Virus record (IMG/VR): IMGVR_UViG_3300045988_138661 | Origin: a virus | DNA: 64,000 nt | Strand: one strand, 5' to 3' | Part shown: in pieces, positions 52,755-64,000 of the stretch | How the letters are laid out: every line of letters starts with the position of its first letter | Numbering within the stretch: position 1 is the stretch's first letter | Program-made: the position numbers and the translations under genes | The notes under the pieces: model-generated | Seen by the model: the letters and a program-made list of their open reading frames with translations, nothing else | Database searches by the model: none | What the model was told of the DNA's origin: nothing

Positions 52755-52946
52755 TTTTTACCTCCAGTCTATGTTTATATTATACTCGAAAAAATTTTTT
52801 TTGTCAAGTTTCATTTAAAAATTTTTCTTTTTATATTTAAAAATTTTTTTAACAAAACAAATAACTTTTGCCCAATCACGCCCTACGATTTGACATTTTT
52901 TATTTTTTATTTTATTATTATTATAAGAAAAAGAAAAGGAGTATTT
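52755..52946. promoter_or_regulatory. Divergent promoter region separating the leftward recoded arm from the rightward standard-code arm.
   Basis: Minus strand: TTGACA-N18-TATAAT then SD. Plus strand: TTGACA-N17-TATTAT then aaaggag and ATG at 52947. Very AT-rich. Confidence 0.5.
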
Positions 52947-53339
52947 ATGGAAATTATTTTTATTGTATTATTGAGTTGTGCGTTAGTAGTATCCCTCCTT
53001 TTTTTATGGTTATACAGAAAAGCCTTTTGGGTATTATACCAAAAAATGGCAAATCAGCAAAAAGAATTAAATAAATGGCCAATCGCGCAATATGAGTGTA
53101 TGTTATTATTAAATATATTTTATAATTATGACTTTGAGGGAAGAGCAGTAGATTTTTCGCGATATGAAACGCAAGGACTAATTGTTTATAATTGTTTTCA
53201 TGAAGCGAAAAATAGTCCAAAAGGAATTACAAATGATGGAATTGTTTCATCATTTTATAAACAAGCATTTGTATATGAATTAGATGATGGAACATTTGAA
53301 TGGGAGGATATTGAAAATGGGTCGGAACCAGCCTTTTGA
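52947..53339 (+). CDS. Small membrane protein, 130 aa (N-terminal TM helix IIFIVLLSCALVVSLLFLWL).
   Basis: ORF track frame. ATG at 52947 has SD aaaggag. Confidence 0.55.
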   Translation: MEIIFIVLLSCALVVSLLFLWLYRKAFWVLYQKMANQQKELNKWPIAQYECMLLLNIFYNYDFEGRAVDFSRYETQGLIVYNCFHEAKNSPKGITNDGIVSSFYKQAFVYELDDGTFEWEDIENGSEPAF

Positions 53340-53712
53340 AGTAAGAGGAATAGATGCGGTAATATTTAGATTAGAACAAGAATATTCTAACGCAACAAGA
53401 GATAAAGATCCTTTTGTAAGAGATTGGAAATTATTTAAAACAATACGTATTGAGAAAAAGGATAATGGGTCAAGAACAATTACTTACAGACCTTTATCAG
53501 ACGCGGAAAAGGCTCAATTAAGCACCAAAGAAGAACAAGAAGAATATCAGTTAAACAAATACAAATATGTATTAGAGCACTTAATGGAAAAATATGATAT
53601 AAATACTATTAATAGATATATTGATAGTTGTAAATATAAAGATAAATTAATTGAATATATTGAGAAAAAATTAAATGCGGAAACCACTCAGCCCTTTGAA
53701 GGCAATTGCTAA
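53317..53712 (+). CDS. Hypothetical protein, 131 aa.
   Basis: ATG 53317 with SD gaggatattgaaaATG, overlapping the previous gene end. Confidence 0.5.
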   Translation: MGRNQPFEVRGIDAVIFRLEQEYSNATRDKDPFVRDWKLFKTIRIEKKDNGSRTITYRPLSDAEKAQLSTKEEQEEYQLNKYKYVLEHLMEKYDINTINRYIDSCKYKDKLIEYIEKKLNAETTQPFEGNC

Positions 53713-53802
53713 AAAGTGTCAGCAGAAAGTCACTTATTCTGTTACTTCTGGATTATACACTCTTATGCAGGGTGAGAAACCTAAAAGAGGTAGAAAAAAG
53801 AA

Positions 53803-53920
53803 ATCATGATTTGAAATTAAAAATTGATTTGTTGTTTTAACCGTATTCTGAAATTGAAAATTGATTTAGATAAATTTAAATTATTCTTCGTGATTTGAAA
53901 TTGAAAATTGATTTAGATTG
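53803..53920. repeat. Three direct repeats of about 25 bp (core GAAATTGAAAATTGATTT), spaced about 42 bp apart. Iteron-like.
   Basis: tgatttgaaattaaaaattgattt / ctgaaattgaaaattgatttagat / tgatttgaaattgaaaattgatttagat, inside a 570-bp non-coding stretch. Confidence 0.6.
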
Positions 53921-54092
53921 CGTTTTGACCACGCAAAAGGAAAAACACAAATAAAAAAAAATTTTTTCCCGAAATACACCCCCGCCCTATAAGGTTCTAA
54001 CTTGTTTATTCTCTGAGAGTATACCAGCCTTACTCTCGCTCTTTTGCGGAACGCAAGACCCCATCCCGCATAAATGCCCCGGTAAACGTTGC

Positions 54093-54135
54093 TCGGCTCG
54101 CTGGCGGTAGTGGCGAGCCGAGTTTTATAAAAATC
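54093..54135 (+). terminator. GC hairpin plus U-tract (ctcggctcgc tggcggtagtg gcgagccgag ttttat); copy E of the GC-hairpin module.
   Basis: 10-bp stem. Followed by TTGCACAAA..ATGCACAAA and a promoter. Confidence 0.5.
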
Positions 54136-54289
54136 AGCAGTTTGCACAAATTTCTCGCCGAAACTTCGTCATAATGCACAAACATCAAAATGCCCGAAAC
54201 TACGCCATCACATTTGGGTAAAATGACTATTGACAATCCAGTAGCCATGTGCTATACTTGTATCATCAAAAAGAAAGAGGTAAATCAAA

Positions 54290-54655
54290 ATGAAGAACAT
54301 TTCCAAAATCATCACCATGGCCATTGCTATCATTCTCTCCGTGTCTTTCTTTGGCCCGTTCCACGACCACACAACCGCGGAAGCCTGTGAGGAAGCGCCC
54401 CAGTCCTACGACCTCTCGGTCATTGAGAATTGGTGCGGTTCAGGCACGGAGCGCGGAAGTATCCGTTTCGTCGGCGCAGAGGTCTATGAGCGCGAGGGCG
54501 ATACACTGACGCTCATTGATGAGCAAGGCAATCTGTGGGACGTGGAAGCACTCAACATTGATGACAACGACTTCTTGCTCTTGTGGATTAACGACAATGA
54601 CACTGACACTGTGGAAGATGATACAATCATTAAGGTATGGAGAGAGGCTTACTAA
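54290..54655 (+). CDS. Secreted small protein, 121 aa, with a signal peptide (MKNISKIITMAIAIILSVSFFGP).
   Basis: ORF track. Promoter tattgacaatccagtagccatgtgctatact. RBS aagaaagaggtaaatcaaaATG. Confidence 0.6.
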   Translation: MKNISKIITMAIAIILSVSFFGPFHDHTTAEACEEAPQSYDLSVIENWCGSGTERGSIRFVGAEVYEREGDTLTLIDEQGNLWDVEALNIDDNDFLLLWINDNDTDTVEDDTIIKVWREAY

Positions 54656-54684
54656 GTCTCTCTCTTTCTTGCGGATCGGCGAAG

Positions 54685-54702
54685 ATTGTTAAAAAATTAA
54701 CA
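54685..54702. promoter_or_regulatory. Perfect palindrome TTGTTAAAAAATTAACAA (operator-like), about 25 nt upstream of a -35 hexamer. Also at 55109-55126, and a variant at 59041-59058.
   Basis: ggcgaagATTGTTAAAAAATTAACAAg and ggcgtagATTGTTAAAAAATTAACAAa are near-identical 27-mers. Confidence 0.5.
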
Positions 54703-54783
54703 AGCAAAGAAGAGTAAAAAACTCTTGACAAATGCGCAATGATGTGCTACAATGTAGATACAATAAGAAAGGGGAATACTCAG

Positions 54784-55074
54784 ATGACTAATAAGAATTT
54801 TTATAATGCTCTCAAAGCAGAAAAGGAACGGTTGATGAACGAAAGCAAGCAGGCATCCCGCGACTGCCAGATTAAGCATGGTGAGATGTCAAAGGCATGG
54901 AACATTGTCAATGCCCTTGAAAGCTTGGGTAAGTTTGGCACGCAGGAACTCAGCAACGCGTATGATAACTATGAGGAAGCCAGCTACGCAAGTATGTTAG
55001 CAGACAACCACTTCGATGACATTGATGAAGCCATTGATAAGATAAATGGATTGATGGGTCTTTACGAAGAATAA
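54784..55074 (+). CDS. Hypothetical protein, 96 aa.
   Basis: Promoter cttgacaaatgcgcaatgatgtgctacaat. RBS aaaggggaatactcagATG. Terminator agggagcagtaatgctccct. Confidence 0.6.
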   Translation: MTNKNFYNALKAEKERLMNESKQASRDCQIKHGEMSKAWNIVNALESLGKFGTQELSNAYDNYEEASYASMLADNHFDDIDEAIDKINGLMGLYEE

Positions 55075-55204
55075 GGGAGCAGTAATGCTCCCTTTCTAAC
55101 GGCGTAGATTGTTAAAAAATTAACAAAGATTTTTCTCAAAAAGGTCTTGACAAATCAGTTAGAATGTGGTATTCTATAATCACAAAGGGAAAGGGGAAAG
55201 AAAA

Positions 55205-55414
55205 ATGATTTATGGCATTGTTTATTATACTAAGGGCGGTCAGGGCTATCTCTTCCAGCAAGCGTTCGAAGAACAGCGCGCTATGGAGATTGCAGGTAAG
55301 ATGAACGACTTACTCGCGACAGGTGCTACGATGTATAATGATAAGTCCTATGGCAAGCTCGACTTGCGGAACGTTGAGTATTTCACAGTTGAACCCAGTA
55401 GCGAAATGTATTAA
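55205..55414 (+). CDS. Hypothetical protein, 69 aa.
   Basis: Promoter cttgacaaatcagttagaatgtggtattctataat. RBS aaaggggaaagaaaaATG. GC hairpin plus T-tract terminator follows. Confidence 0.55.
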   Translation: MIYGIVYYTKGGQGYLFQQAFEEQRAMEIAGKMNDLLATGATMYNDKSYGKLDLRNVEYFTVEPSSEMY

Positions 55415-55599
55415 GGGCGGGAGCGGGCTCCCCGCTCTTTCTCTTGCGCCGTGGGGCGCGTGTAGAGCGTCCCAGCCCGAACTTTATCACAGTAAAGCAT
55501 TAAAGCAAAATTTTTTCCATTTTTTGCCAAAAACCACTTGACATTCCTATCCCGAAATGCTATAATAGTATCATCAAAAGAAAGAAAGAGGTAAATCAA

Positions 55600-55722
55600 A
55601 TGTCTATTCACGATGGTCTTGTTCTTCTCGCTATCTATGTTGGTGTTATCGGCGCGGGCGCGCTCATCGAATACGTGGAGCACCGCGTAAAGAGAGCGGT
55701 TCATCGCAGAAAGAGAAGTTGA
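55600..55722 (+). CDS. Hydrophobic micro-protein, 40 aa (MSIHDGLVLLAIYVGVIGAGALIEYVEHRVKRAVHRRKRS): one TM helix plus a basic tail.
   Basis: Own promoter (cacttgacattcctatcccgaaatgctataat), RBS and terminator (agagaagtt gaaaa aacttctct ttttttt). Confidence 0.4.
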   Translation: MSIHDGLVLLAIYVGVIGAGALIEYVEHRVKRAVHRRKRS

Positions 55723-55776
55723 AAAACTTCTCTTTTTTTATAAAAAACACTTGACAAATCCAACAGCCGGTGCTAT

Positions 55777-55925
55777 ACTATAATTGTCAAGAGGGGAAGA
55801 GATAAGTTACTTCCCAAAGGGTGTGTGGCAAGTAGCCATTTCCTTTGATAAAACGCTTAGTTGGAGCGACCAGACAGGGCGCGCACTGTCCGCAAAAGTA
55901 GAGAATAAAAAAATTCCAACTTCTC
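55777..55925 (+). ncRNA. Candidate non-coding transcript from promoter 55751-55776; begins UGUCAAGAGG and contains hairpins.
   Basis: No credible ORF (track ORF 55784..56023 runs across the next promoter). Stem gggaag/cttccc and gacag-ggcgcgca-ctgtc. Confidence 0.3.
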
Positions 55926-56104
55926 AAAAAAACCTCTTGACAGACCCCTTAGAGTGTGATACAATAAGGATGTCAAGAGGCAGACAGGAGCGAACAACCT
56001 CTCCCCAATGCGTAGTTGGGTGAAGTAAAACAAAATCTCCCTACCGAACAAAAAAGTTCAAAAAACCTCTTGACAAACCCCTTAGAGTGTGATACAATAA
56101 GGGT
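55924..56104 (+). repeat. Tandem duplication of a 44-bp promoter unit (aaaaacctcttgacaNaccccttagagtgtgatacaataagg) at 55924-55967 and 56061-56104.
   Basis: Near-identical copies. The first is followed by AUGUCAAGAGG..., the second by the tRNA-like element. Confidence 0.6.
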
Positions 56105-56110
56105 ACAGAT

Positions 56111-56222
56111 GGCGGTGAGGTAGAACGGTTCTACTTCCACAAAGATGGCTGAGATACAAAAGTGTCGCTCACTTGGAAACGTTCGCTATTGGAAAATGTG
56201 GGTTCAACTCCCACCACCGCCT
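56111..56222 (+). tRNA. tRNA-like element of 113 nt: 7-bp acceptor stem (GGCGGTG/CACCGCC), D-arm (GTAG-AACGGTT-CTAC) and canonical T-arm (GTGGG-TTCAACT-CCCAC). Has an insertion of about 40 nt in the anticodon region, so either an atypical or intron-containing tRNA, or a tRNA-like RNA.
   Basis: Arms identified by hand. Possible anticodon stem 56136-56140 / 56189-56193 enclosing the insert. The promoter places the TSS about 5 nt upstream. Length is atypical and the anticodon is unresolved. Confidence 0.45.
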
Positions 56223-56302
56223 CAAAATTTTTTGAAAAAACACTTGACAAATCCAAAAGTAGATGTTATAATGTAGATACAATAAGAAAGGGGATAAAAA
56301 CC

Positions 56303-56566
56303 ATGACTACTTACAACATTCTCACTATTGGCCCTTCTCGTGAACCGAAGCTCGCGGGCAAGTTCAACGTTGCGGATACTGAAAACTTCCTTGACCGGTT
56401 AGAGGAAACGCTCTACATTCTCTTTGAATTAGAGCCGAAATCCCGCGAATGGAAACGCGAATTTCTCAAACATCTTTTTGCGGAATTCACTTATCACTTT
56501 TGCGAAGATTCCCGCGTTGAAAAGCAAGGCAACAATATTATCGTTTATGAAGAAAATGAGGGCTGA
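56303..56566 (+). CDS. Hypothetical protein, 87 aa (MTTYNILTIGPSREPK...).
   Basis: Promoter cacttgacaaatccaaaagtagatgttataat. RBS aaaggggataaaaaccATG. Terminator gggctgaaaaagccc plus T8. Confidence 0.6.
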   Translation: MTTYNILTIGPSREPKLAGKFNVADTENFLDRLEETLYILFELEPKSREWKREFLKHLFAEFTYHFCEDSRVEKQGNNIIVYEENEG

Positions 56567-56682
56567 AAAAGCCCTCATTTTTTTTCAAACTTTTTTCAAA
56601 AAACTATTGACATTTACTGCCCTAAGTGGTATTATAATATCAGAAAGGGAAAGGAAAATCCCGAACACCAGAAAGGTTAGCT

Positions 56683-56874
56683 ATGGATACTTTCGAAATG
56701 TATTACGAGAAATTCATGAAGATGCGCAAGGCTGACATTATTCGCGAGGGTCAGACTTGGGATATTTGGGCAAACTGCCAAAGCACTGCCGATAGCCTGA
56801 TGAAGTGGACAAAGCCCGTTCTTGCGAGAGTTCTTGCTGGACGCCTGGACCGTTTGGAAAAGCGGGGCTACTAA
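56683..56874 (+). CDS. Hypothetical protein, 63 aa.
   Basis: ORF track. Promoter ctattgacatttactgccctaagtggtattataat. Terminator agcggggctactaagccccgct. Confidence 0.55.
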   Translation: MDTFEMYYEKFMKMRKADIIREGQTWDIWANCQSTADSLMKWTKPVLARVLAGRLDRLEKRGY

Positions 56875-56959
56875 GCCCCGCTTCTTTCTTGAAAAAAGTT
56901 CTTGACAAATCTCGAATCTATGGTATAATAAGAGTATAAAAGGAAAGGGGATAAACAAA

Positions 56960-57199
56960 ATGACTTTGGACATGATTAAAAATGTAATTGGCACGGTAAA
57001 AGGCGCGCTGATGTTCTATGAGGGGAATGGCGTCGAAGTGATAAACGAAAACACTTGCGGTCGCTATCTCAAAGACCGCAAAGGTCGCATGACTTTGAAT
57101 GGTGATGTGTTAGACGCAAGCGAAGAGTGGGTGCTGGGATTGCCGGTCAGCGATTTGAAAGCCAGAGATAACGTTCTCATTATTTATGTTGATGGCTAA
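56960..57199 (+). CDS. Hypothetical protein, 79 aa.
   Basis: ORF track. Promoter cttgacaaatctcgaatctatggtataat. Terminator atctcccc aaaaa tggggagat plus T7. Confidence 0.55.
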   Translation: MTLDMIKNVIGTVKGALMFYEGNGVEVINENTCGRYLKDRKGRMTLNGDVLDASEEWVLGLPVSDLKARDNVLIIYVDG

Positions 57200-57253
57200 A
57201 ATTAAATTTTTTGAATTAAAAATCTCCCCAAAAATGGGGAGATTTTTTTGTAC

Positions 57254-57440
57254 ATTTTATCTATTGACAATCCCAAAACTTCATGGTATAATCGGCCGGC
57301 GCGCGAACGGACCTGGCGCGCCGAGTTTTTGTCAATAGGCGGGTTGCACAAATTTTTGGGGCAAATCTTTGTGCATAATGTCAATAGACAGAATCCCGAA
57401 TTGGTGCTATACTATAATCACAGTAAGGGAAGGAAAACCT
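57254..57440 (+). promoter_or_regulatory. GC-hairpin module copy A: promoter P1 (TTGACA 57254 / TATAAT 57277), GC hairpin 57283-57315 (cggccGGCGCGCgaacggacctgGCGCGCCgag) plus T5, TTGTCAAT, dyad TGCACAAA-N17-TTTGTGCA, then promoter P2 (TAGACA-N17-TATACT).
   Basis: Read directly from the sequence. Comparable modules at 60790-60960 (B), 62828-63010 (C), 59041-59250 (D) and 54093-54280 (E). Confidence 0.5.
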
Positions 57441-57464
57441 ACCAAACCGGAAAGGGATAACAAC

Positions 57465-57773
57465 ATGATTAACATTCGTTCTATTCTCAAACTCGCTGAA
57501 AATGACGGTCTGACCCTCAAACATGGCAAGAAGGTCAATTACAAGTCCGGCTGGCAGGTCGCCACTAATGGCGTTGAATGTAAGACCGCCCGCGAAGCCA
57601 TTAACGCGGTCAAGGAATATGGCGGCAACTGCGGCGTGTGGTTTGCGAACGGCATTTATTATGTTGACAAGTCCAAGAGGGTGCAGACCAAGAAGCAGGC
57701 GCTTGAAATCGGCAAGGCGTGCAACCAAATCAGTGTATATGGCTGGGCGCGCGGCAATCTGGCTTACTGCTAA
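57465..57773 (+). CDS. Hypothetical protein, 102 aa.
   Basis: RBS ggaaagggataacaacATG. ORF track frame. Confidence 0.6.
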   Translation: MINIRSILKLAENDGLTLKHGKKVNYKSGWQVATNGVECKTAREAINAVKEYGGNCGVWFANGIYYVDKSKRVQTKKQALEIGKACNQISVYGWARGNLAYC

Positions 57774-57851
57774 AAAATTAAATAGAGGGCTTGACAAAAC
57801 AAGCCCTCTATGCTATAATAAAGGCACAATAAAGGAAAGGGAGAAAACAAC

Positions 57852-58121
57852 ATGGAAATTAAATATGCTCACGAAATGGCGGCTATCGCTAAGGACATCC
57901 GCACCGCCAAGCGCGCCAAAGATACTGCTACGGCCCGCGCCTATCTTGAAGAAAACCTGATGAAAGATATTGAAGACCACGCGGAAAAAGGCGAGAATTA
58001 TCTGTCTCGCTGTCTCGTTGCCATTGAAGATGAAGCCGTGAAAGAAGCCTTAAAAAATCTTTTGCGGAATTATGGCTATACAACTTCTTATTCAAACGGC
58101 GTTCTCACCGTAAGGTGGTAA
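57852..58121 (+). CDS. Hypothetical protein, 89 aa.
   Basis: ORF track. Promoter with the -35 hexamer inside the palindrome agagggcttgacaaaacaagccctct. Terminator agagggaaaatttttccctct plus T. Confidence 0.6.
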   Translation: MEIKYAHEMAAIAKDIRTAKRAKDTATARAYLEENLMKDIEDHAEKGENYLSRCLVAIEDEAVKEALKNLLRNYGYTTSYSNGVLTVRW

Positions 58122-58225
58122 GGTAAAAGAGGGAAAATTTTTCCCTCTTTTTCTAAAAAACTTCTTGACAAATCCAAAAGCAGATGTTATAATAAAAGCA
58201 CAATAAAGGAAAGGGGAATAAATTA

Positions 58226-58297
58226 ATGGAATGTCCTTATTGCGATGGAAAGTGCGGAACACATGCTCAATGCGTTAAATGCGGAAAAGGGAAATAA
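58226..58297 (+). CDS. Candidate 23-aa Cys-rich micro-protein (MECPYCDGKCGTHAQCVKCGKGK), a zinc-ribbon-like peptide.
   Basis: Strong RBS aaaggaaaggggaataaattaATG. Four CxxC-type Cys pairs. Confidence 0.3.
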   Translation: MECPYCDGKCGTHAQCVKCGKGK

Positions 58298-58299
58298 AA

Positions 58300-58656
58300 A
58301 TGGGAACGGAATTCTTAATTATTGGCGGAATTTTTAGCGCAGTCCTTGCGCTGTTTGTCTGCCTTGTCTGTTGGTGCCGCATGGAAAAGTCTCACCCAAT
58401 AGTCAGATTGTTAGTTGGTATCCTTATTTCGTGCGCCATCGGTTATGGCATGACGGGCGCGTTAGTCGCAGAACATAATGCCGATAGAAAAGCATGGAAC
58501 AACGGCTATTGCTCCATTTGCGGAAATGAAATGGAATTTGTAAATGCTTCTCATGGTCGGCATGGAACAGTTTATTACTATTGGTATTGCGATGAGTGCG
58601 GTCATACGTTAGAGTTAACTTCTAACTTTGCAAAGGGGGAAACAGATAATGAATGA
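58300..58656 (+). CDS. Membrane protein with two TM helices plus a C-terminal zinc ribbon (CSICG...CDECG), 118 aa.
   Basis: RBS ggaaaagggaaataaaaATG. ORF track frame. Confidence 0.55.
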   Translation: MGTEFLIIGGIFSAVLALFVCLVCWCRMEKSHPIVRLLVGILISCAIGYGMTGALVAEHNADRKAWNNGYCSICGNEMEFVNASHGRHGTVYYYWYCDECGHTLELTSNFAKGETDNE

Positions 58657-58855
58657 AAAAACTATCCCACAGGCTTTGAGAGAACAGGCAGACGCCATTG
58701 AAAAGTTAGCTCAAAGAATTGCGAAAGAAAGCAAGGAATTTCCAGACGAGGAAGACCGCAGAGACGGCGGAGAACTTGCGGACGCTTTATTTGCGATTCA
58801 ATCAAAGCTCCGCTATGAGTACTCTTGGATTGCGGAAACCATGTGGGACGTGTAA
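58649..58855 (+). CDS. Hypothetical acidic protein, 68 aa.
   Basis: RBS caaagggggaaacagataATG, overlapping the previous stop. Terminator tcaggcgagat ttaat tatctcgcctga plus T. Confidence 0.5.
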   Translation: MNEKTIPQALREQADAIEKLAQRIAKESKEFPDEEDRRDGGELADALFAIQSKLRYEYSWIAETMWDV

Positions 58856-58934
58856 TTTTCAGGCGAGATTTAATTATCTCGCCTGAAAATTTTTTTCAAA
58901 AAACTATTGACAAACTCACCCCGTTGTGGTATTA

Positions 58935-59036
58935 TAATCATGTCAAGAGGAAGTGGTAAGCCTCTTGAAGTAGTGAACAAATTTCTCATACTATGGTTTG
59001 CGCGGTAGCCGATAATTACCGCGCCCTTTCTATTTC
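58935..59036 (+). ncRNA. Candidate small RNA or leaderless micro-ORF transcript. Starts AUGUCAAGAGG, has a 5-prime hairpin caagagg/cctcttg and a terminator gcgcggta-gccgataat-taccgcgc plus T-run.
   Basis: Promoter ctattgacaaactcaccccgttgtggtattataat immediately upstream. A possible 22-aa leaderless ORF (MSRGSGKPLEVVNKFLILWFAR) ends at TAG. Confidence 0.3.
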
Positions 59037-59258
59037 ATTTTTGTTAAAATTTTAACAATGATTGTTCGGCCGGGCGCGCACGGACCACGCGCCCGGAATT
59101 TCAATTATATCACAGGGCCAGCAATTTGTCAAGCAAAAAGTCGCGAAAATTTGCATAAATTATTTTTCCCAATTTTGTGCGATCCGTCAATAGACAAATC
59201 TCTAAGAGTGTGTTATATTATAATTGTTCCAAGGGAACAGAAAGATGAGGTAAATAAA

Positions 59259-59465
59259 ATGACTAACTACAACATTCACTCTTTTATCAAGACCCAGCTT
59301 CTCCATGCCGAGCAGATGCCCAGCGATGCCGAACTTTTCAAGCATAACGCCTATGGCGCAGTCTCGTGGGAGTTATATCGCACGAATGACCATGCCCTTG
59401 AAGAACAGTGGGCAAATGTATATGCTCCCAAGTTCGACGCCATCATCAGAAATTATCATTTCTGA
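59259..59465 (+). CDS. Hypothetical protein, 68 aa (MTNYNIHSFIK...).
   Basis: RBS gatgaggtaaataaaATG. Promoter tagacaaatctctaagagtgtgttatatt. Confidence 0.55.
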   Translation: MTNYNIHSFIKTQLLHAEQMPSDAELFKHNAYGAVSWELYRTNDHALEEQWANVYAPKFDAIIRNYHF

Positions 59466-59534
59466 TAAAAAGGGCTTGACAAAAGCCCTTTCGCATGATA
59501 TAATACATATACAATCAAGAAAGAGGTAAAACAA

Positions 59535-59873
59535 ATGCTTATCAAAATGTCAAAACACGCCACGCAAGACCGCATTGACCGCCTGCTCTTCATCTACGAT
59601 AATGTAGGAATCGGCGAACCGTATATCGACAGTGTTGAGGACGATGTTCTCTACACTATCACTACAACAGGTATTCTTCTTGTTCGTAGTGCTAAGGACG
59701 GAACACTCATTACAGCCTATATCGCGGATATTGATAAAATCACCGCAATATGGAGAAATAAGCACGGCGAGCGCCCTATGCCTGATAACCTTTACAAGCG
59801 GGTTCTCGCAAACGCGTTCTTTGATAGAATGTGGAATAAGCAAGAAAAGGAGAAAAAGAAAAATGTTCGGTAA
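59535..59873 (+). CDS. Hypothetical protein, 112 aa.
   Basis: ORF track. Promoter with the -35 hexamer inside aaagggcttgacaaaagcccttt. Confidence 0.6.
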   Translation: MLIKMSKHATQDRIDRLLFIYDNVGIGEPYIDSVEDDVLYTITTTGILLVRSAKDGTLITAYIADIDKITAIWRNKHGERPMPDNLYKRVLANAFFDRMWNKQEKEKKKNVR

Positions 59874-60216
59874 GAAAAAGAAGCCTTTCAATCCATATGA
59901 AAAACGCGCGGACGATGCGCTTTATGAAGTATGGGAAACGCGCGACCGCCTTTATGAAAAGACAAGGCAAGTCATTACGCGCGTAGGGGTGATTAACCTT
60001 TACCCCAATGGCGCTGACCGCGAGAAAGCCGTCTCTGACGCCGAAGAAGCGAAGCACGCTTTGCTTGTAGCTATTGGAGCATACGACACCGCGCGCATGG
60101 AATACAATGATTATGTTGAAAAAAACGCGGAAAAGTTTGACAACCATAAAGAAAAATGGACTACCACGAGCCATGAAATTATCGAATGGGCTTACAAATA
60201 CTATTATAAAGGGTGA
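59863..60216 (+). CDS. Hypothetical protein, 117 aa.
   Basis: RBS aaaaggagaaaaagaaaaATG, overlapping the upstream gene end. Confidence 0.55.
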   Translation: MFGKKKKPFNPYEKRADDALYEVWETRDRLYEKTRQVITRVGVINLYPNGADREKAVSDAEEAKHALLVAIGAYDTARMEYNDYVEKNAEKFDNHKEKWTTTSHEIIEWAYKYYYKG

Positions 60217-60221
60217 ATAAA

Positions 60222-60455
60222 ATGAAGATTACTATTAAGAATAATAAACTCGCCCCCTTTGGAGAAATTGCCAAGGGCGTAGTTTTCAAAGACCCGACCG
60301 CCGAAGATTATTACATCAAAATCGCCGCAGAGGTCGATGAAAATACCGGTGATGATGAATGGAATTGTCTCCATTTGGACAATTACGCTCTCGACTGTTT
60401 CGGCCTAAAAGATATGGTTCTCCCCATCTACGATGCGGAACTGATTATTCCCTGA
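60222..60455 (+). CDS. Hypothetical protein, 77 aa.
   Basis: RBS aaagggtgaataaaATG. Hairpin ggcggttgt-accccaaaaa-acaaccgcc follows. Confidence 0.55.
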   Translation: MKITIKNNKLAPFGEIAKGVVFKDPTAEDYYIKIAAEVDENTGDDEWNCLHLDNYALDCFGLKDMVLPIYDAELIIP

Positions 60456-60568
60456 TAAAACCGGACTTTGTCCGCGTTTCTCTCCCCCTTTCCTATGGCT
60501 TTGGCGGTTGTACCCCAAAAAACAACCGCCACCCTTTCCAAAAAATAAATTGAATGGAGATAAAAAAG

Positions 60569-60745
60569 ATGAAGAATGAGAAACTTAGTGAGGTTGTTAA
60601 AACTGTGTGCTTGATGGCACGATACGGCATTCAGAAGGGATATCCCTCGGGCGGGACAGAAGCAAATGACATGATTGAACGTGTCGCGCTTCTTGAAAAC
60701 AAGCTCGTTCCCATTCTCGTCGACCTTGAAGCCGTAGAAAACTAA
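60569..60745 (+). CDS. Hypothetical protein, 58 aa.
   Basis: RBS aatggagataaaaaagATG. Terminator aatcacccaa tttgggtgatt plus T8. Confidence 0.5.
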   Translation: MKNEKLSEVVKTVCLMARYGIQKGYPSGGTEANDMIERVALLENKLVPILVDLEAVEN

Positions 60746-60967
60746 ATGAAAAATCACCCAATTTGGGTGATTTTTTTTGTTTACTTTCACTATTGACAAA
60801 GTTCCTTGAATGTGATAAAATCGTCGGCGCGCGGACGATTGTGGCGCGCCGAGTTTTTTGTCAAGAGGTAAGTTCAACAAATTTTCGCACGAATTTTTGT
60901 GTAAAATGCCAATAGACAAAAATCCTATAATGTGGTAAGATGTATACAACAAATAGAGGGGGCTAAA

Positions 60968-61315
60968 ATGATGGTTGCATGGTATTGGTTAATTCTCGCG
61001 TTTTGCGTGGGTATTGCGTTCGCTACAATCACTGATGAGTGGTATGATTGGGAAAACACTTTAACTGACATTCTTGCATGGATTGCTCTGATTATCGGCT
61101 TCGTTCCTTTGACTTTCTATTGCATATTTCTCAAACTGACGGTTTTCCACCCCACTACGCGAGAGAAGTTTGAGGAAGTCAAAAAGGTTAGCGAAGAAAC
61201 TTGTAAAATCTATCGAGTATGCGGAAACGTGTATTTCTGGATTGACCTTAAAGCAACAAAAATCTATAACAAGGTATTCTTTATTCGAGTAAAGGAAACT
61301 GAAAACAATGGGTGA
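60968..61315 (+). CDS. Small membrane protein, 115 aa.
   Basis: RBS aaatagagggggctaaaATG. Preceded by GC-hairpin module copy B. Confidence 0.55.
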   Translation: MMVAWYWLILAFCVGIAFATITDEWYDWENTLTDILAWIALIIGFVPLTFYCIFLKLTVFHPTTREKFEEVKKVSEETCKIYRVCGNVYFWIDLKATKIYNKVFFIRVKETENNG

Positions 61316-61466
61316 AAGAGTTAATGTTTTATGTTTAATTGAGTGGTTGCGCGCTTGGACGGAAACCTTTAATGACTGCGCTTGTTGTCCTTTGTCCAAC
61401 GAGTGCGACCGCCGGAGCATCAGTTATGAATGTGCTGATGACCTATTAGAAAAATTAAAGGAGTAA
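61308..61466 (+). CDS. Cys-rich 52-aa protein (…FNDCACCPLSNECDRRSISYECADD…).
   Basis: ATG overlaps the upstream stop. RBS-like ggaaactgaaaacaATG. Confidence 0.4.
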   Translation: MGERVNVLCLIEWLRAWTETFNDCACCPLSNECDRRSISYECADDLLEKLKE

Positions 61467-61539
61467 ATTAAAAACTCTCTATTGACATTTTTGTTATAAT
61501 ATGATATTATTATAATAGAAAAAGGAAAGGGTGATAATA

Positions 61540-62013
61540 ATGAATACAATTCTTCTGTTCGCGCTTTGCACGGCGGTGAATGTTATTCTGTCAACTATCA
61601 AAAGCATTTTGACTGTTAAGGGCGGAAAACTTAGCGCGTCTTTCATCAACGCTCTCACTTATGGTTTTTATTCCTATGTGATTGTGCTGACTTCTGCGGA
61701 CGGTATGCCTATTTGGTTAAAAATGGCTATTACTGCCATTTGTAATTTCGTAGGCGTTTACCTTGTCAAGTGGATTGAAGAAAAAGCGCGTAAAGATAAA
61801 TTATGGAAAGTCGAGCTTACCGTACCGACAAGATACACTAATACCATTGACTTTGACTTACATGATGTTCCACATTCTTACATTGAATTGAGCGATAAAC
61901 ATACGCTTTTCAATTTTTACTGCGCGACCCAAAAGGAAAGCGCAAAAGTCAAGGCTATCGCTAATCAGTATGAAGCAAAATATTTTGTTGCGGAAAGCAA
62001 AAATCTTGAATAA
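61540..62013 (+). CDS. Membrane protein, 157 aa (N-terminal 3-4 TM helices plus a soluble C-terminal domain).
   Basis: Promoter ctctattgacatttttgttataat. RBS aaaaggaaagggtgataataATG. Confidence 0.6.
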   Translation: MNTILLFALCTAVNVILSTIKSILTVKGGKLSASFINALTYGFYSYVIVLTSADGMPIWLKMAITAICNFVGVYLVKWIEEKARKDKLWKVELTVPTRYTNTIDFDLHDVPHSYIELSDKHTLFNFYCATQKESAKVKAIANQYEAKYFVAESKNLE

Positions 62014-62077
62014 AGGGCTTGACAAAAGCCTTTTATTCTGCTATACTTAACGTATCAAGTGAAAGGGGAAAATTAAA

Positions 62078-62530
62078 ATGAAAGCTACTGGTATCGTTCG
62101 CAGAATTGATGACCTTGGACGTGTGGTCATTCCGAAAGAGATTCGCCGGACTTTGAAGATCCGCGAGGGCGACCCGCTTGAAATCTTCCTTGGAGAGGAC
62201 AACTGCGTTTGCTTCAAGAGGTATTCAGTGCTTGGTTCGTTGACCGAAGAGGCTCTGCGAACCGCTATTACAATGGCGTCAAATTCCGGTCTACGCCCTA
62301 TCGCAATTTATGATACTACTGTAAAACTGCGGGGCATGGAAAACTTTTCGGCCTATGTCCCGACCCAGTGGGAATTTGAAAGAAAGCCATTTGTTTTCAA
62401 TAATACCTATGGCGTTTATCCGGTTTGCGCGGACGGCGACCTTGTGGGTTATGCGGTTTGCGACCAGCAAGACATGGGGTGTGAAATGGACATGATTGTT
62501 CGCTACCTCAGCATTGTGTCTGAACGTTAA
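62078..62530 (+). CDS. AbrB/SpoVT-family transcriptional regulator, 150 aa (N-terminal swapped-hairpin domain MKATGIVRRIDDLGRVVIPKEIRRTLKIREGDPLEIF).
   Basis: The N-terminus matches the hallmark AbrB/Abh/SpoVT N-domain almost residue for residue. Own promoter and RBS. Confidence 0.75.
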   Translation: MKATGIVRRIDDLGRVVIPKEIRRTLKIREGDPLEIFLGEDNCVCFKRYSVLGSLTEEALRTAITMASNSGLRPIAIYDTTVKLRGMENFSAYVPTQWEFERKPFVFNNTYGVYPVCADGDLVGYAVCDQQDMGCEMDMIVRYLSIVSER

Positions 62531-62606
62531 AAAAATAGCACAAGGGGCTTGACAAAACAAGTCCCTTGTGCTATAATAAAACCATCAAAGGAAAGGGGCA
62601 AATAAA

Positions 62607-62783
62607 ATGGAAATTGAAAAGAAATTCCAGGTTGATTATAGCGGTAAAAATCCTTGGGACCAGTATTACGACAATCGGGTTAATTTTGATTCCGAAGAAA
62701 AAGCCGATGCTTTTATCCAAAAGTTGATGGAAGATGAAAATATCTATCAAATTTTCAAAACCATTACTGCCAGATACAGATAA
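62607..62783 (+). CDS. Hypothetical protein, 58 aa.
   Basis: RBS aaggaaaggggcaaataaaATG. Terminator ggtgaaaattcacc plus T7. Confidence 0.5.
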   Translation: MEIEKKFQVDYSGKNPWDQYYDNRVNFDSEEKADAFIQKLMEDENIYQIFKTITARYR

Positions 62784-63021
62784 AATTTGAGGTGAAAATT
62801 CACCTCATTTTTTTGGTTATTTTGCCTATTGACAAAAATCCAATAGTGTGATAAAATGGCCGGCCGTTTACGTATGCCACGGCCGGAACTTCAATTATAC
62901 CAGAAGCCAGCAAATTTGTCAATCGGCAAAATGCACAAAAATCTAATTAGTTTTTTTCCCAAAATGTGCTTGACAAAATCCAGCAGATGCGCTATAATGT
63001 ATTTAGAAAGAGGTGAAAAAC

Positions 63022-63180
63022 ATGGATAATTTCAAGAAAGCCACTGTAAAAGATTATACTGCTTGGGATTTGAATTGTAGAAACATTTGCCCTCACGATA
63101 AATCTTCTAATAAACTGGAAAAGCGTATCAAGCGCAAGGCTCGCAGAAGTCTTAAACAAAATTTGAAAAAAAAGTATTGA
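63022..63180 (+). CDS. Small basic protein, 52 aa.
   Basis: RBS agaaagaggtgaaaaacATG. The stop lies inside the -35 hexamer of the next promoter. Confidence 0.45.
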   Translation: MDNFKKATVKDYTAWDLNCRNICPHDKSSNKLEKRIKRKARRSLKQNLKKKY

Positions 63181-63237
63181 CAAAATACAGCAAATGCGCT
63201 ATAATGTAAGTACAGTAAAGGAAAGGGGTAAACACCA

Positions 63238-63738
63238 ATGAAAATCACTTACATCAAGTCTCACGTTGTGACCACTCGACGCTCTATCAACTTTGACATG
63301 GACGGCACTATCGCTGACCTCTACGGCGTCAAGGATTGGCTCGCGCTTCTCCGTTCGGAAAATCCCACACCCTATCGGACTGCCGCTCCTATGTGCGATA
63401 TGGCTGAATTGAATGAGGTTTGCGAACTTCTCCGCGCCGAGGGTTGGGAAATCAACATCATCACTTGGCTTTCCAAAGATTCGAGCGAGGAATACAAAAA
63501 CCTCGTGCGTAAAGCAAAGCGTGCGTGGCTTGAAGAACAGGGCTTCCACTATGACCACTTCCACGGCGTCCAGTATGGCGCGACCAAAGCCGACAGCGTG
63601 CGCGACCGCTATGACGTGTCCATCTTGGTTGACGATAATGAAAAGGTTCGGAATGGTTGGCACTTGGGCGCTACCATTGACCCGACCGCAGTAAACATTA
63701 TCGAAAAACTTTCGGAACTTTTGGAGAAAAGGGCTTGA
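63238..63738 (+). CDS. HAD-superfamily 5-prime(3-prime)-deoxyribonucleotidase-like protein (NT5C-type; FDMDGTIAD motif I), 166 aa.
   Basis: DxDGT motif near the N-terminus and a size typical of the NT5C family. Promoter attgacaaaatacagcaaatgcgctataat. Confidence 0.55.
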   Translation: MKITYIKSHVVTTRRSINFDMDGTIADLYGVKDWLALLRSENPTPYRTAAPMCDMAELNEVCELLRAEGWEINIITWLSKDSSEEYKNLVRKAKRAWLEEQGFHYDHFHGVQYGATKADSVRDRYDVSILVDDNEKVRNGWHLGATIDPTAVNIIEKLSELLEKRA

Positions 63739-63792
63739 CAAAGCCCTACTCCAATGGTATAATAAATACATCAAATGAAAGGGGAAAATAAA

Positions 63793-64000
63793 ATGTTTGT
63801 TCTTTTAATTCTGCTGTCTCTCACAATTTCGTTCCTGCTTATCTCTGGTTTAGTTTGGCTTCTCTGTTGGCTTCTCCCTGCCATTGGTATCACCGCAATC
63901 GGCACTTTCACCATCGTGTTCTCGTGGAAGCTGGCACTCGCAATTTGGATTATTCTCCTGCTTCTGAGCACTATCTTCCCGAGCGGTAGTAATAGGGGGT
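63793..64000 (+). CDS. Partial membrane protein (multi-TM; MFVLLILLSLTISFLLISGLVWLL...), running off the window.
   Basis: RBS aaaggggaaaataaaATG. Promoter with the -35 hexamer inside the agggcttgacaaagccct palindrome. Confidence 0.5.
   Translation, partial: MFVLLILLSLTISFLLISGLVWLLCWLLPAIGITAIGTFTIVFSWKLALAIWIILLLLSTIFPSGSNRG

Follow-up and report, generated by a model that had tools for sequence, protein, structure and literature searches.

We analyzed the early region of a tailed gut phage in a 64,000-nucleotide (nt) stretch of the IMG/VR virus record IMGVR_UViG_3300045988_138661 (this whole stretch is hereafter called the window), focusing on positions 55777 to 59036, in which a 10-base element, TGTCAAGAGG, recurs just downstream of strong promoters. 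The early region (52,800 to 64,000) lies on the plus strand, uses the standard code, has a G+C content of about 43%, and contains near-consensus TTGACA-17-TATAAT promoters, each located before a small open reading frame (ORF). The promoters of the window carry the Gram-positive TRTG motif at -16, and 26 promoters matching at least 11 of the 12 consensus bases were counted within 52.5 to 64 kb, most of which have an upstream A-tract and a TG ahead of the -10 box.

The element follows three plus-strand promoters, namely, P55751 (-35 box, TTGACA at 55751-55756; 17-nt spacer; -10 box, TATACT at 55774-55779, preceded by TG), P55937 (-35 box, 55937-55942; -10 box, 55960-55965), and P58907 (58907-58935; -35 box, TTGACA at 58907-58912; 17-nt spacer; -10 box, TATTAT at 58930-58935), each of which scores 11/12 against the sigma-70/sigma-A consensus. 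A preliminary description of this DNA had reported a shared sequence after three promoters, and we found TGTCAAGAGG exactly 5 nt past the -10 box in all three cases, at 55785-55794 (start of RNA1), 55971-55980 (RNA2), and 58941-58950 (RNA4), where it is preceded by T, A, and A, respectively. The window holds six exact copies, four on the plus strand and two on the minus strand, and 12 copies with at most one mismatch, compared with 1.93 expected (none of 100 shuffles reached 12). Both exact minus-strand copies (55933-55942 and 56066-56075) are -35 boxes, CCTCTTGACA, those of P55937 and P56070. Thus, TGTCAAGAGG is the reverse complement of the extended -35 box of the phage, a mirror relation that the preliminary description had overlooked, although it had correctly recognized a recurring start motif. 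About 25 other consensus promoters in the window lack the motif and drive mRNAs with short leaders holding a Shine-Dalgarno (SD) sequence and an ATG, whereas no such SD-ATG arrangement lies downstream of the three motif promoters. P56070 (56066-56098, plus strand), composed of CCTCTTGACA and a -10 box, has no 5' element of its own and drives a tRNA-like RNA.

RNA1 (55784-55942, plus strand), driven by P55751, is a putative non-coding unit in which a 10-bp helix joins 55785-55794 to 55933-55942 and closes the unit; the latter segment, CCTCTTGACA, is both the 3' arm of this helix and the extended -35 box of P55937. Its predicted minimum free energy (MFE) is -51.1 kcal/mol (z score, -4.6), and the relative L223 has G-C instead of A-U at one internal helix pair (34-62). 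RNA2 (55970-56075, plus strand) is likewise non-coding and closed by a 10-bp helix (55971-55980 with 56066-56075), its 3' arm being the -35 box of P56070, and folds at -28.9 kcal/mol (z score, -3.9). The closing helix is present in the MFE structures of both units; the start of RNA2 also has a weak local alternative, AGAGG/CCTCT (55976-55980 with 55998-56002). A partial homologue of RNA2 occurs in L030, with CCTCTCCC..TTGG..AAGTAAAA in common, and a pattern search for RNA2 homologues returned nothing besides it. The RNA4 unit (58940-59040, plus strand, about 100 nt), which is kept in six IMG/VR relatives, ends at a terminator hairpin (59000-59024) plus a T-rich tail. At its start, TGTCAAGAGG meets a nearby partner, CCTCTTGA, in a local hairpin (58941-58968) with 8 bp (58943-58950 with 58961-58968) and a 10-nt loop, that is, TCAAGAGG, 10 nt, and CCTCTTGA. 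The CAAGAGG/CCTCTTG complement, previously noticed at two of the starts, is accordingly present at all three. At L037:434 the same local hairpin appears in a doubly compensated version, TCGGGAGG/CCTCCCGA in place of TCAAGAGG/CCTCTTGA. In a scan of 120 stretches for local hairpins of the form TCAAGAGG-N3-25-CCTCTTGA, chance matches seemed dominant, and nine lay behind a promoter-like site.

At gathering score, Rfam 15 found no family at the units, the tRNA model alone giving a match (56111-56222), and permissive E-values added only terminator-like chance matches. A blastn search of the region against 50,697 phage records gave no match, and a literature search for both 10-mers yielded primers and shRNAs only. 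The tRNA-like RNA (about 56111-56222, plus strand; Rfam tRNA, 37 bits) has an acceptor stem, a D-arm, and a T-arm, with a 50-nt insertion in the place of the anticodon loop, and ARAGORN called no tRNA there. It has no conserved U33, anticodon-like loop, or CUA and is therefore not a TAG suppressor; it is kept in L223, L091/L219, L220, and L222, with three compensated pairs in the extended arm.

We searched IMG/VR with the pattern CCTCTTGACA-N(22-36)-TGTCAAGAGG, which allowed a gap of 22 to 36 nt. The pattern was found in 38 stretches of phage contigs (17 to 400 kb), with a gap of 28 or 29 nt in all of them and, in nearly all, a TAnAAT box 5 to 6 nt ahead of the second arm. Across the window and these 38 phage loci, the motif (at most two mismatches) lies at offset 5 or 6 past the -10 box in 84 of 108 distinct promoter-like sites, and it stands 5 to 6 nt after the -10 box in about 90 related loci of phages and metagenome-assembled genomes (MAGs). 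When GAGG was fixed at that distance, the fourth position of TGTC was C in 67 of the 95 distinct sequences, and the whole TGTCAA stood ahead of GAGG at 42 of the 95 sites. Judging from the distance to the -10 box, transcription is expected to start at -1 to +2 of the motif, which would make the motif the first 10 to 11 nt of the transcript. On balance, we favor the view that TGTCAAGAGG represents the first 10 or so transcribed bases of a reusable early-promoter cassette, whose layout is an A-tract, CCTCTTGACA, a 17-nt spacer with TRTG, TAnAAT, 5 to 6 nt, and TGTCAAGAGG.

The transcripts that begin in this way are diverse. The motif is found ahead of non-coding units, of some mRNAs, and of a tRNA-Ile precursor (L017/L054), and it also follows promoters with other -35 extensions of their own (TCAATTGTAA, CCACTTGCAT, ACAC, and ACTA). 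It is therefore a promoter-linked transcript start and not a single RNA gene family. A miniature inverted-repeat transposable element with terminal inverted repeats was considered and ruled out, since the repeat-flanked units share no internal similarity. In bacterial genomes and MAGs, the pattern matched Clostridia-type bins resembling the same phages, besides one Lachnospiraceae hsp20 promoter and unrelated palindromes in Acidobacteriaceae. We also observed, in Oscillospiraceae MAGs from termite gut (L045, L058, and L085), a GC-rich conserved GCTTAGCGCTGTGGCGC..GCAGCTCCTC..CTAACCGCTACC after a motif promoter, which matches no Rfam family.

Pairing of the element with the -35 region of the next promoter sets the non-coding units apart: the complementarity is 10/10 in 44 of 89 distinct non-coding units, compared with 2 of 25 coding units, and 9/10 in a further 18 of the 89. 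At loci holding both CCTC- and CCCC-type promoters, a GAGG element is followed by CCTCTTGACA 32 times and in no case by CCCC, whereas a GGGG element is followed by CCCCTTGACA (CCCC) 12 times and by CCTC once, with a G·U pair. The GGGG elements mismatch the extensions of their own promoters (CCGC, TCTC, TCTA, CCAG, and CCAC). In a formal count over 73 distinct arm pairs and 500 shuffles, the covariation score was 0.108, compared with 0.087 after shuffling (no shuffle was as high), and 26 cells were changed on both sides, compared with 16.7 in the shuffles (1 of 500 reached 26); pairing drops off past 10 bp. Changes in one arm are mostly A to G or C to U, keeping a G·U pair in the sense RNA, and sense-strand G·U pairs number 31, compared with 13 A·C pairs, the wobble equivalent on the antisense strand. 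In one orthologous unit family from five phages, a 13-bp closing helix is intact in all five, its changes being one C-G to U·G, one A-U to G·U, and one compensated A-U to G-C. The closing helix has an ensemble probability of at least 0.65 in all 56 of 56 units (mean, 0.92), and the distance between its arms is 10, 28 to 29, or 41 to 215 nt. The preliminary description had offered a shared RNA 5' element as one of its two readings, and this reading gains partial support from the fixed distance to the -10 box and from variation that preserves pairing with a downstream complement.

We consider it somewhat probable, from these comparisons of sequence, that the promoters form a cassette in which the start of the RNA base-pairs with the following promoter's -35 box or, as at 58961, with a local copy, so that each non-coding unit is closed. 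The sequences show four features directly: where the element sits with respect to the -10 box, the match of the element as a complement to the downstream -35 box, the covariation and sense-strand wobble, and the swapping of whole cassettes between relatives. In tandem cassettes, the 5' end of the sense RNA, UGUCAAGAGG, would pair with CCUCUUGACA transcribed from the -35 region of the next promoter; where no promoter follows, the partner would be a copy close by, e.g., CCUCUUGA. Each of the non-coding units between promoters, about 50 to 215 nt long, would thereby become a stem-closed domain, and with transcription predicted to begin at -1 to +2 of the motif, the helix would leave almost no free 5' tail. 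The TGTCAA half of the 5' arm would be fixed because its partner must stay the TTGACA promoter box, and the four-base extension GAGG/CCTC alone would be free to drift, doing so in step between the arms. Such a dual constraint on the arms would explain the base-for-base conservation of the RNA start among transcripts that are unrelated in other respects. Transcription presumably continues into the next promoter. As to function, the helix may protect the 5' end from 5'-dependent RNases (RNase J, RppH, and RNase Y) and insulate the units from one another. We propose this role for the non-coding early RNA because an occluded 5' end and an SD-like sequence without a start codon are both known to stabilize mRNAs in Bacillus (PMC3997798 and PMC7509114).

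Several observations weigh against this interpretation. One family, in which TGTCAGGAGG is followed by CCCCTTGACA, carries an A·C mismatch in its six orthologues, and some motif promoters run straight into an mRNA without a downstream partner (e.g., L006, L013, and L028); in such partnerless leaders, the element may just travel with the cassette. The covariation comes mainly from one helix position, plus wobble changes, and a single ancestral arrangement may have given rise to the AGTCAAGGGG/CCCC pairing. Because the sequences are related, independent events are fewer than the counts suggest, and most loci were retrieved via the canonical 10-mers, which biases the sample toward the consensus. 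Besides, when the next 5' element is present, a hairpin spanning the promoter rivals the closing helix (ensemble probability, 0.42 versus 0.55).

The cassettes are swapped between relatives, as are the promoter-early stem-loops (PeSLs) of T4 (PMC2839356). In L011, which is 70 to 79% identical to the window, a small protein gene replaces the array of RNA1, RNA2, and the tRNA-like RNA between orthologous flanking genes. Also absent from L011 is the 130-bp RNA4 unit, an insertion reaching from just past the P58907 -10 box to a point ahead of a GC hairpin. At 59041-59058, close to where this insertion ends on the right, is a perfect 18-bp palindrome, TTGTTAAAATTTTAACAA. In L223 (OBLI01000030.1, a gut-metagenome contig), the block corresponding to 55742-56240 of the window is 97.6% identical, compared with 76% for the late genes, and this common block spans from promoter to next promoter. 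The minus strand of L223 (1030-1960) holds the RNA1-RNA2 array and, immediately ahead of the tRNA-like RNA, an additional stem-closed RNA (about 95 nt; GGGTGG...CCACCC), and about 330 nt more of non-coding sequence lies past the next promoter.

As to the phage itself, positions 1 to 52,800 of the window hold minus-strand late genes with a G+C content of about 29%, which give long reading frames only when TAG is read as sense. Genes for a large terminase, a portal protein, and structural proteins of very large size are among them. The nearest relatives of the terminase come from large Firmicutes phages (Enterococcus, Geobacillus, Bacillus, and SPbeta-like) and from a human-gut phage, and the cassette belongs to a clade of large TAG-recoded Firmicutes phages. 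No suppressor tRNA was found within the window.

The pairing interpretation has to be weighed against others. It is possible, but rather unlikely, that TGTCAAGAGG is a part of the cassette at the DNA level only, i.e., an initial-transcribed sequence that favors initiation or promoter escape and is kept uniform by recombination, with a complementarity to the -35 box that has no function in RNA. Purine-rich initial-transcribed sequences (GAGAGG) indeed occur in strong phage promoters, e.g., T7 A1 and T5 N25, and the fixed distance from the -10 box, the occurrence of the element before mRNAs, the tRNA precursor (L017/L054), and non-coding units alike, and the documented cassette swapping would all accord with such a role. 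However, this view leaves unexplained the covariation of GAGG/CCTC and GGGG/CCCC with the next promoter, the sense-strand G·U bias, the compensated 13-bp helix, and the compensated local hairpin of L037; moreover, some 25 mRNA promoters in the window, equally close to the consensus, do without the element.

PeSLs of T4-type phages are the closest known system (Arbiol et al. 2010, PMC2839356; Comeau et al. 2014, PMC4122927). Like them, the present cassettes combine dense near-consensus early promoters of the sigma-70 type with an AT-rich upstream region, join the promoter to a stem-loop that overlaps promoter elements (here at 55933-55980), and sit before small ORFan genes in a plastic region, where indels and replacements between relatives end at the elements. 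Unlike the T4-type myoviruses of Gram-negative hosts, the phage studied here resembles large Firmicutes siphoviruses by its terminase. Its conserved arm lies in the transcribed region (+1 to +10), the pairing joins the 5' end of a transcript to the -35 box of the next promoter instead of forming a terminator-type G/C-run hairpin, and no terminator activity is implied, no U-tract following the helix in the sense direction.

Another reading takes CCTCTTGACA and TGTCAAGAGG around one promoter as a PeSL-type stem-loop that would attenuate or process read-through RNA from upstream or terminate antisense transcription. The 48-nt promoter palindrome (55933-55980) does fold at -19.3 kcal/mol (z score, -5.0) and is followed on the minus strand by TTTTTTT, the complement of the upstream A-tract; known PeSL stem-loops overlap -35 or -10 boxes and act as attenuators (PMC2839356), and the promoter hairpin competes with the unit-closing helix in the ensemble. 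Nevertheless, we regard this reading as improbable: the covariation is with the next promoter and not with the extension of the element's own -35 box, which is non-complementary at many motif promoters (TCAATTGTAA, ACAC, and ACTA), the loop is 28 to 29 nt long, the hairpin is not followed by a U-tract in the sense direction, and the wobble pairs favor the sense over the antisense strand.

Quite improbable, too, is that the 10-mer is a DNA operator half-site, bound at -35 and +1 by a phage or host regulator that shuts off or tunes the early promoters. A perfect 10-bp inverted repeat brackets the promoter core, as an operator would, and in Acidobacteriaceae the same 10-mers form operator-like palindromes before PadR-like genes (assigned by eye). 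However, the spacing of the copies varies from 10 nt to about 215 nt, in place of the fixed spacing of half-sites, the variable extension covaries rather than keeping one consensus, and no candidate regulator was identified. The one-sided changes, being of the G·U type and asymmetric between strands, suggest RNA pairing rather than protein contacts. The Spo0A box (TGTCGAA) resembles the motif, but the consensus of the motif has no CG core. TGTCAA at +1 was also considered as the -35 box of an antisense promoter and rejected, the required -10 box falling in the plus-strand spacer (TCTAAG or GGGATT-like), where it is unusable.

The bacterial matches deserve a separate description. In L039, L051, L073, and L079 (Laedolimicola, Merdisoma, and Anaerosacchariphilus), a chromosomal gene of the Hsp20 family has CCTCTTGACA ... 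TGTCAAGAGG around its promoter (1549-1596 in L039), with the -35 box inside an inverted repeat, TTAGCACTC-N9-CAGTGCTAA, that resembles CIRCE (controlling inverted repeat of chaperone expression); both Hsp20 and CIRCE were assigned by eye. This arrangement may be due to chance, or it may hint that the host uses the same device. In the Acidobacteriaceae contigs (L040-L088), both 10-mers flank an inner ATCTAGA...TCTAGAT repeat directly upstream of a start codon, and the downstream genes appear PadR-like by eye from their first few residues. These 20-base palindromes were not accepted as the phage-type element; they lack a -10 box, adjoin the start codon, and are read as unrelated operators.

The other reading of the preliminary description was a family of leaderless micropeptides beginning with MSRG. 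The two ORFs that it quoted do exist, but the base before TG is A at 42, T at 31, G at 16, and C at 6 of the 95 distinct motif starts. The ORFs in the NTG frame have a median of 23 codons, compared with 19 and 18 in the other two frames, several are merely MSRG*, MSRGE*, or MSRGK*, and in these 95 starts we saw no conservation beyond SRG and no synonymous variation in TCA AGA GG. For the putative ORF of the 58941 unit, the six relatives show two non-synonymous substitutions and one synonymous substitution, and in one relative the ATG is changed to TTG. Thus, although an ATG stands before TCAAGAGG at two of three window sites and 42 of 95 distinct sites, and six relatives preserve the 22-codon length of the ORF in the 58941 unit, leaderless peptides are very improbable, given a first base of T, G, or C at 53 of 95 sites, lengths that match the other frames with some stops after 4 to 5 codons, the lack of conservation after SRG and of synonymous variation, two of three substitutions that are non-synonymous together with the lost ATG, and a motif that also precedes a tRNA. 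The micropeptide annotation, tempting but unsupported, is therefore removed.

A working SD sequence was ruled out as well. An ATG follows 4 to 14 nt downstream at only 3 of the 42 sites of the TGTCAA class, compared with 24 of the 53 other GAGG sites. The SD-like match comprises the 4-nt GAGG core, which according to the predicted folds would be engaged in the closing helix. The element is reminiscent of SD-like 5' stabilizers without a start codon, such as the STAB-SD of cryIIIA and the polypurine stabilizer of phage SP82 early RNA (Hue et al. 1995, cited in PMC3997798 and PMC7509114). In both settings, a purine-rich stretch, here AAGAGG(GGAA), lies very close to the start of an early phage RNA in a Gram-positive context, a start codon seldom follows (3/42 here), and the variant TGTCAGGAGG improves the SD match. 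In contrast, ribosome binding does not account for the invariant TGTC or the complementarity to the -35 box, and the SD core is only GAGG and hidden when the element is paired.

5'-terminal stem-loops act as mRNA stabilizers in the ompA and papA mRNAs of E. coli and the aprE and ermC leaders of B. subtilis (reviewed in PMC3997798). Judging from the distance of 5 to 6 nt to the -10 box, the helix described here would likewise begin at or within about 1 to 2 nt of the 5' end, some cases are simple local hairpins (58943-58968), and base pairing has been maintained in evolution. Unlike in those leaders, the 3' arm often lies at a distance of 50 to 215 nt and serves at the same time as a promoter element in the DNA, one fixed sequence is shared by many unrelated transcripts, and stabilization is a suggestion drawn from the arrangement. 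Tandem strong early promoters with downstream RNase III processing sites are also found in phage T7 (A1-A3). There, as here, two to four strong promoters of the host type, about 100 to 130 nt apart, head early transcription with RNA helices between the units, whereas the present helices are 10 to 13 bp long and made of promoter boxes, with no RNase III-type substrate of about 20 bp evident.

One further plus-strand copy of TGTCAAGAGG (60859-60868) is not a transcript start. The preliminary description had pointed to the same sequence behind a module hairpin at 60858; the 11-mer TTGTCAAGAGG is indeed present there (60858-60868), but its context is different, that of a -35 homologue. This copy follows a GC hairpin plus a T-run. 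In an alignment of five module copies (including W62829, L011, and L024), which have in order a plus promoter, a GC hairpin, a minus promoter, and a second plus promoter, TTTGTCAAGAGG at this site aligns with the -35 box of the convergent minus-strand promoter of the sister modules, the spacer and -10 box of which are missing from the window copies at 57264 and 60793. The site is the same -35 box sequence in a different role. The module itself, about 170 bp long, occurs at 57264-57420, 59060-59225, 60793-60945, and 62829-63000; its plus promoter fires directly into a GC-rich hairpin built on the 8-bp palindromes GGCGCGCC or GGCCGGCC. Two of the copies have a convergent promoter on the minus strand (59132 and 62922) that faces the hairpin, and next in the module come a conserved spacer and a second promoter, whose -35 box is TAGACA. 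An origin, a decoy, and a tiny RNA are all possibilities for this module. Elsewhere in the early region, a TTGACA -35 box lies in the loop of a terminator-like hairpin (GGGC TTGACAAA GCCC), at 57782-57811, about 59468-59491, about 62012-62034, about 62541-62572, and about 63727-63750, so that the terminator of one gene overlaps the promoter of the next.

We tentatively suggest, as a broader possibility in which our confidence is limited, that one 10-bp sequence is read twice, in DNA as a -35 box and in RNA as the 3' arm that captures the 5' end of the transcript from the previous cassette, so that any sequence recombined between two cassettes would become a stem-closed and 5'-protected RNA domain. 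If this is true, a single short sequence is under a double constraint, from sigma-factor recognition in DNA and base pairing in RNA, and the cassette is a built-in platform on which phage non-coding RNAs can evolve and be exchanged and which in this phage carries RNA1, RNA2, and an unusual tRNA-like RNA. The arrangement also suggests a natural insulator part for tandem promoters, and the -10 box followed after 5 to 6 nt by TGTCAAGAGG ... CCYCTTGACA provides a signature for non-coding early RNAs in uncultured gut Firmicutes phages. Our finding extends the idea of mobile promoter cassettes of the PeSL kind beyond the T4-type phages.

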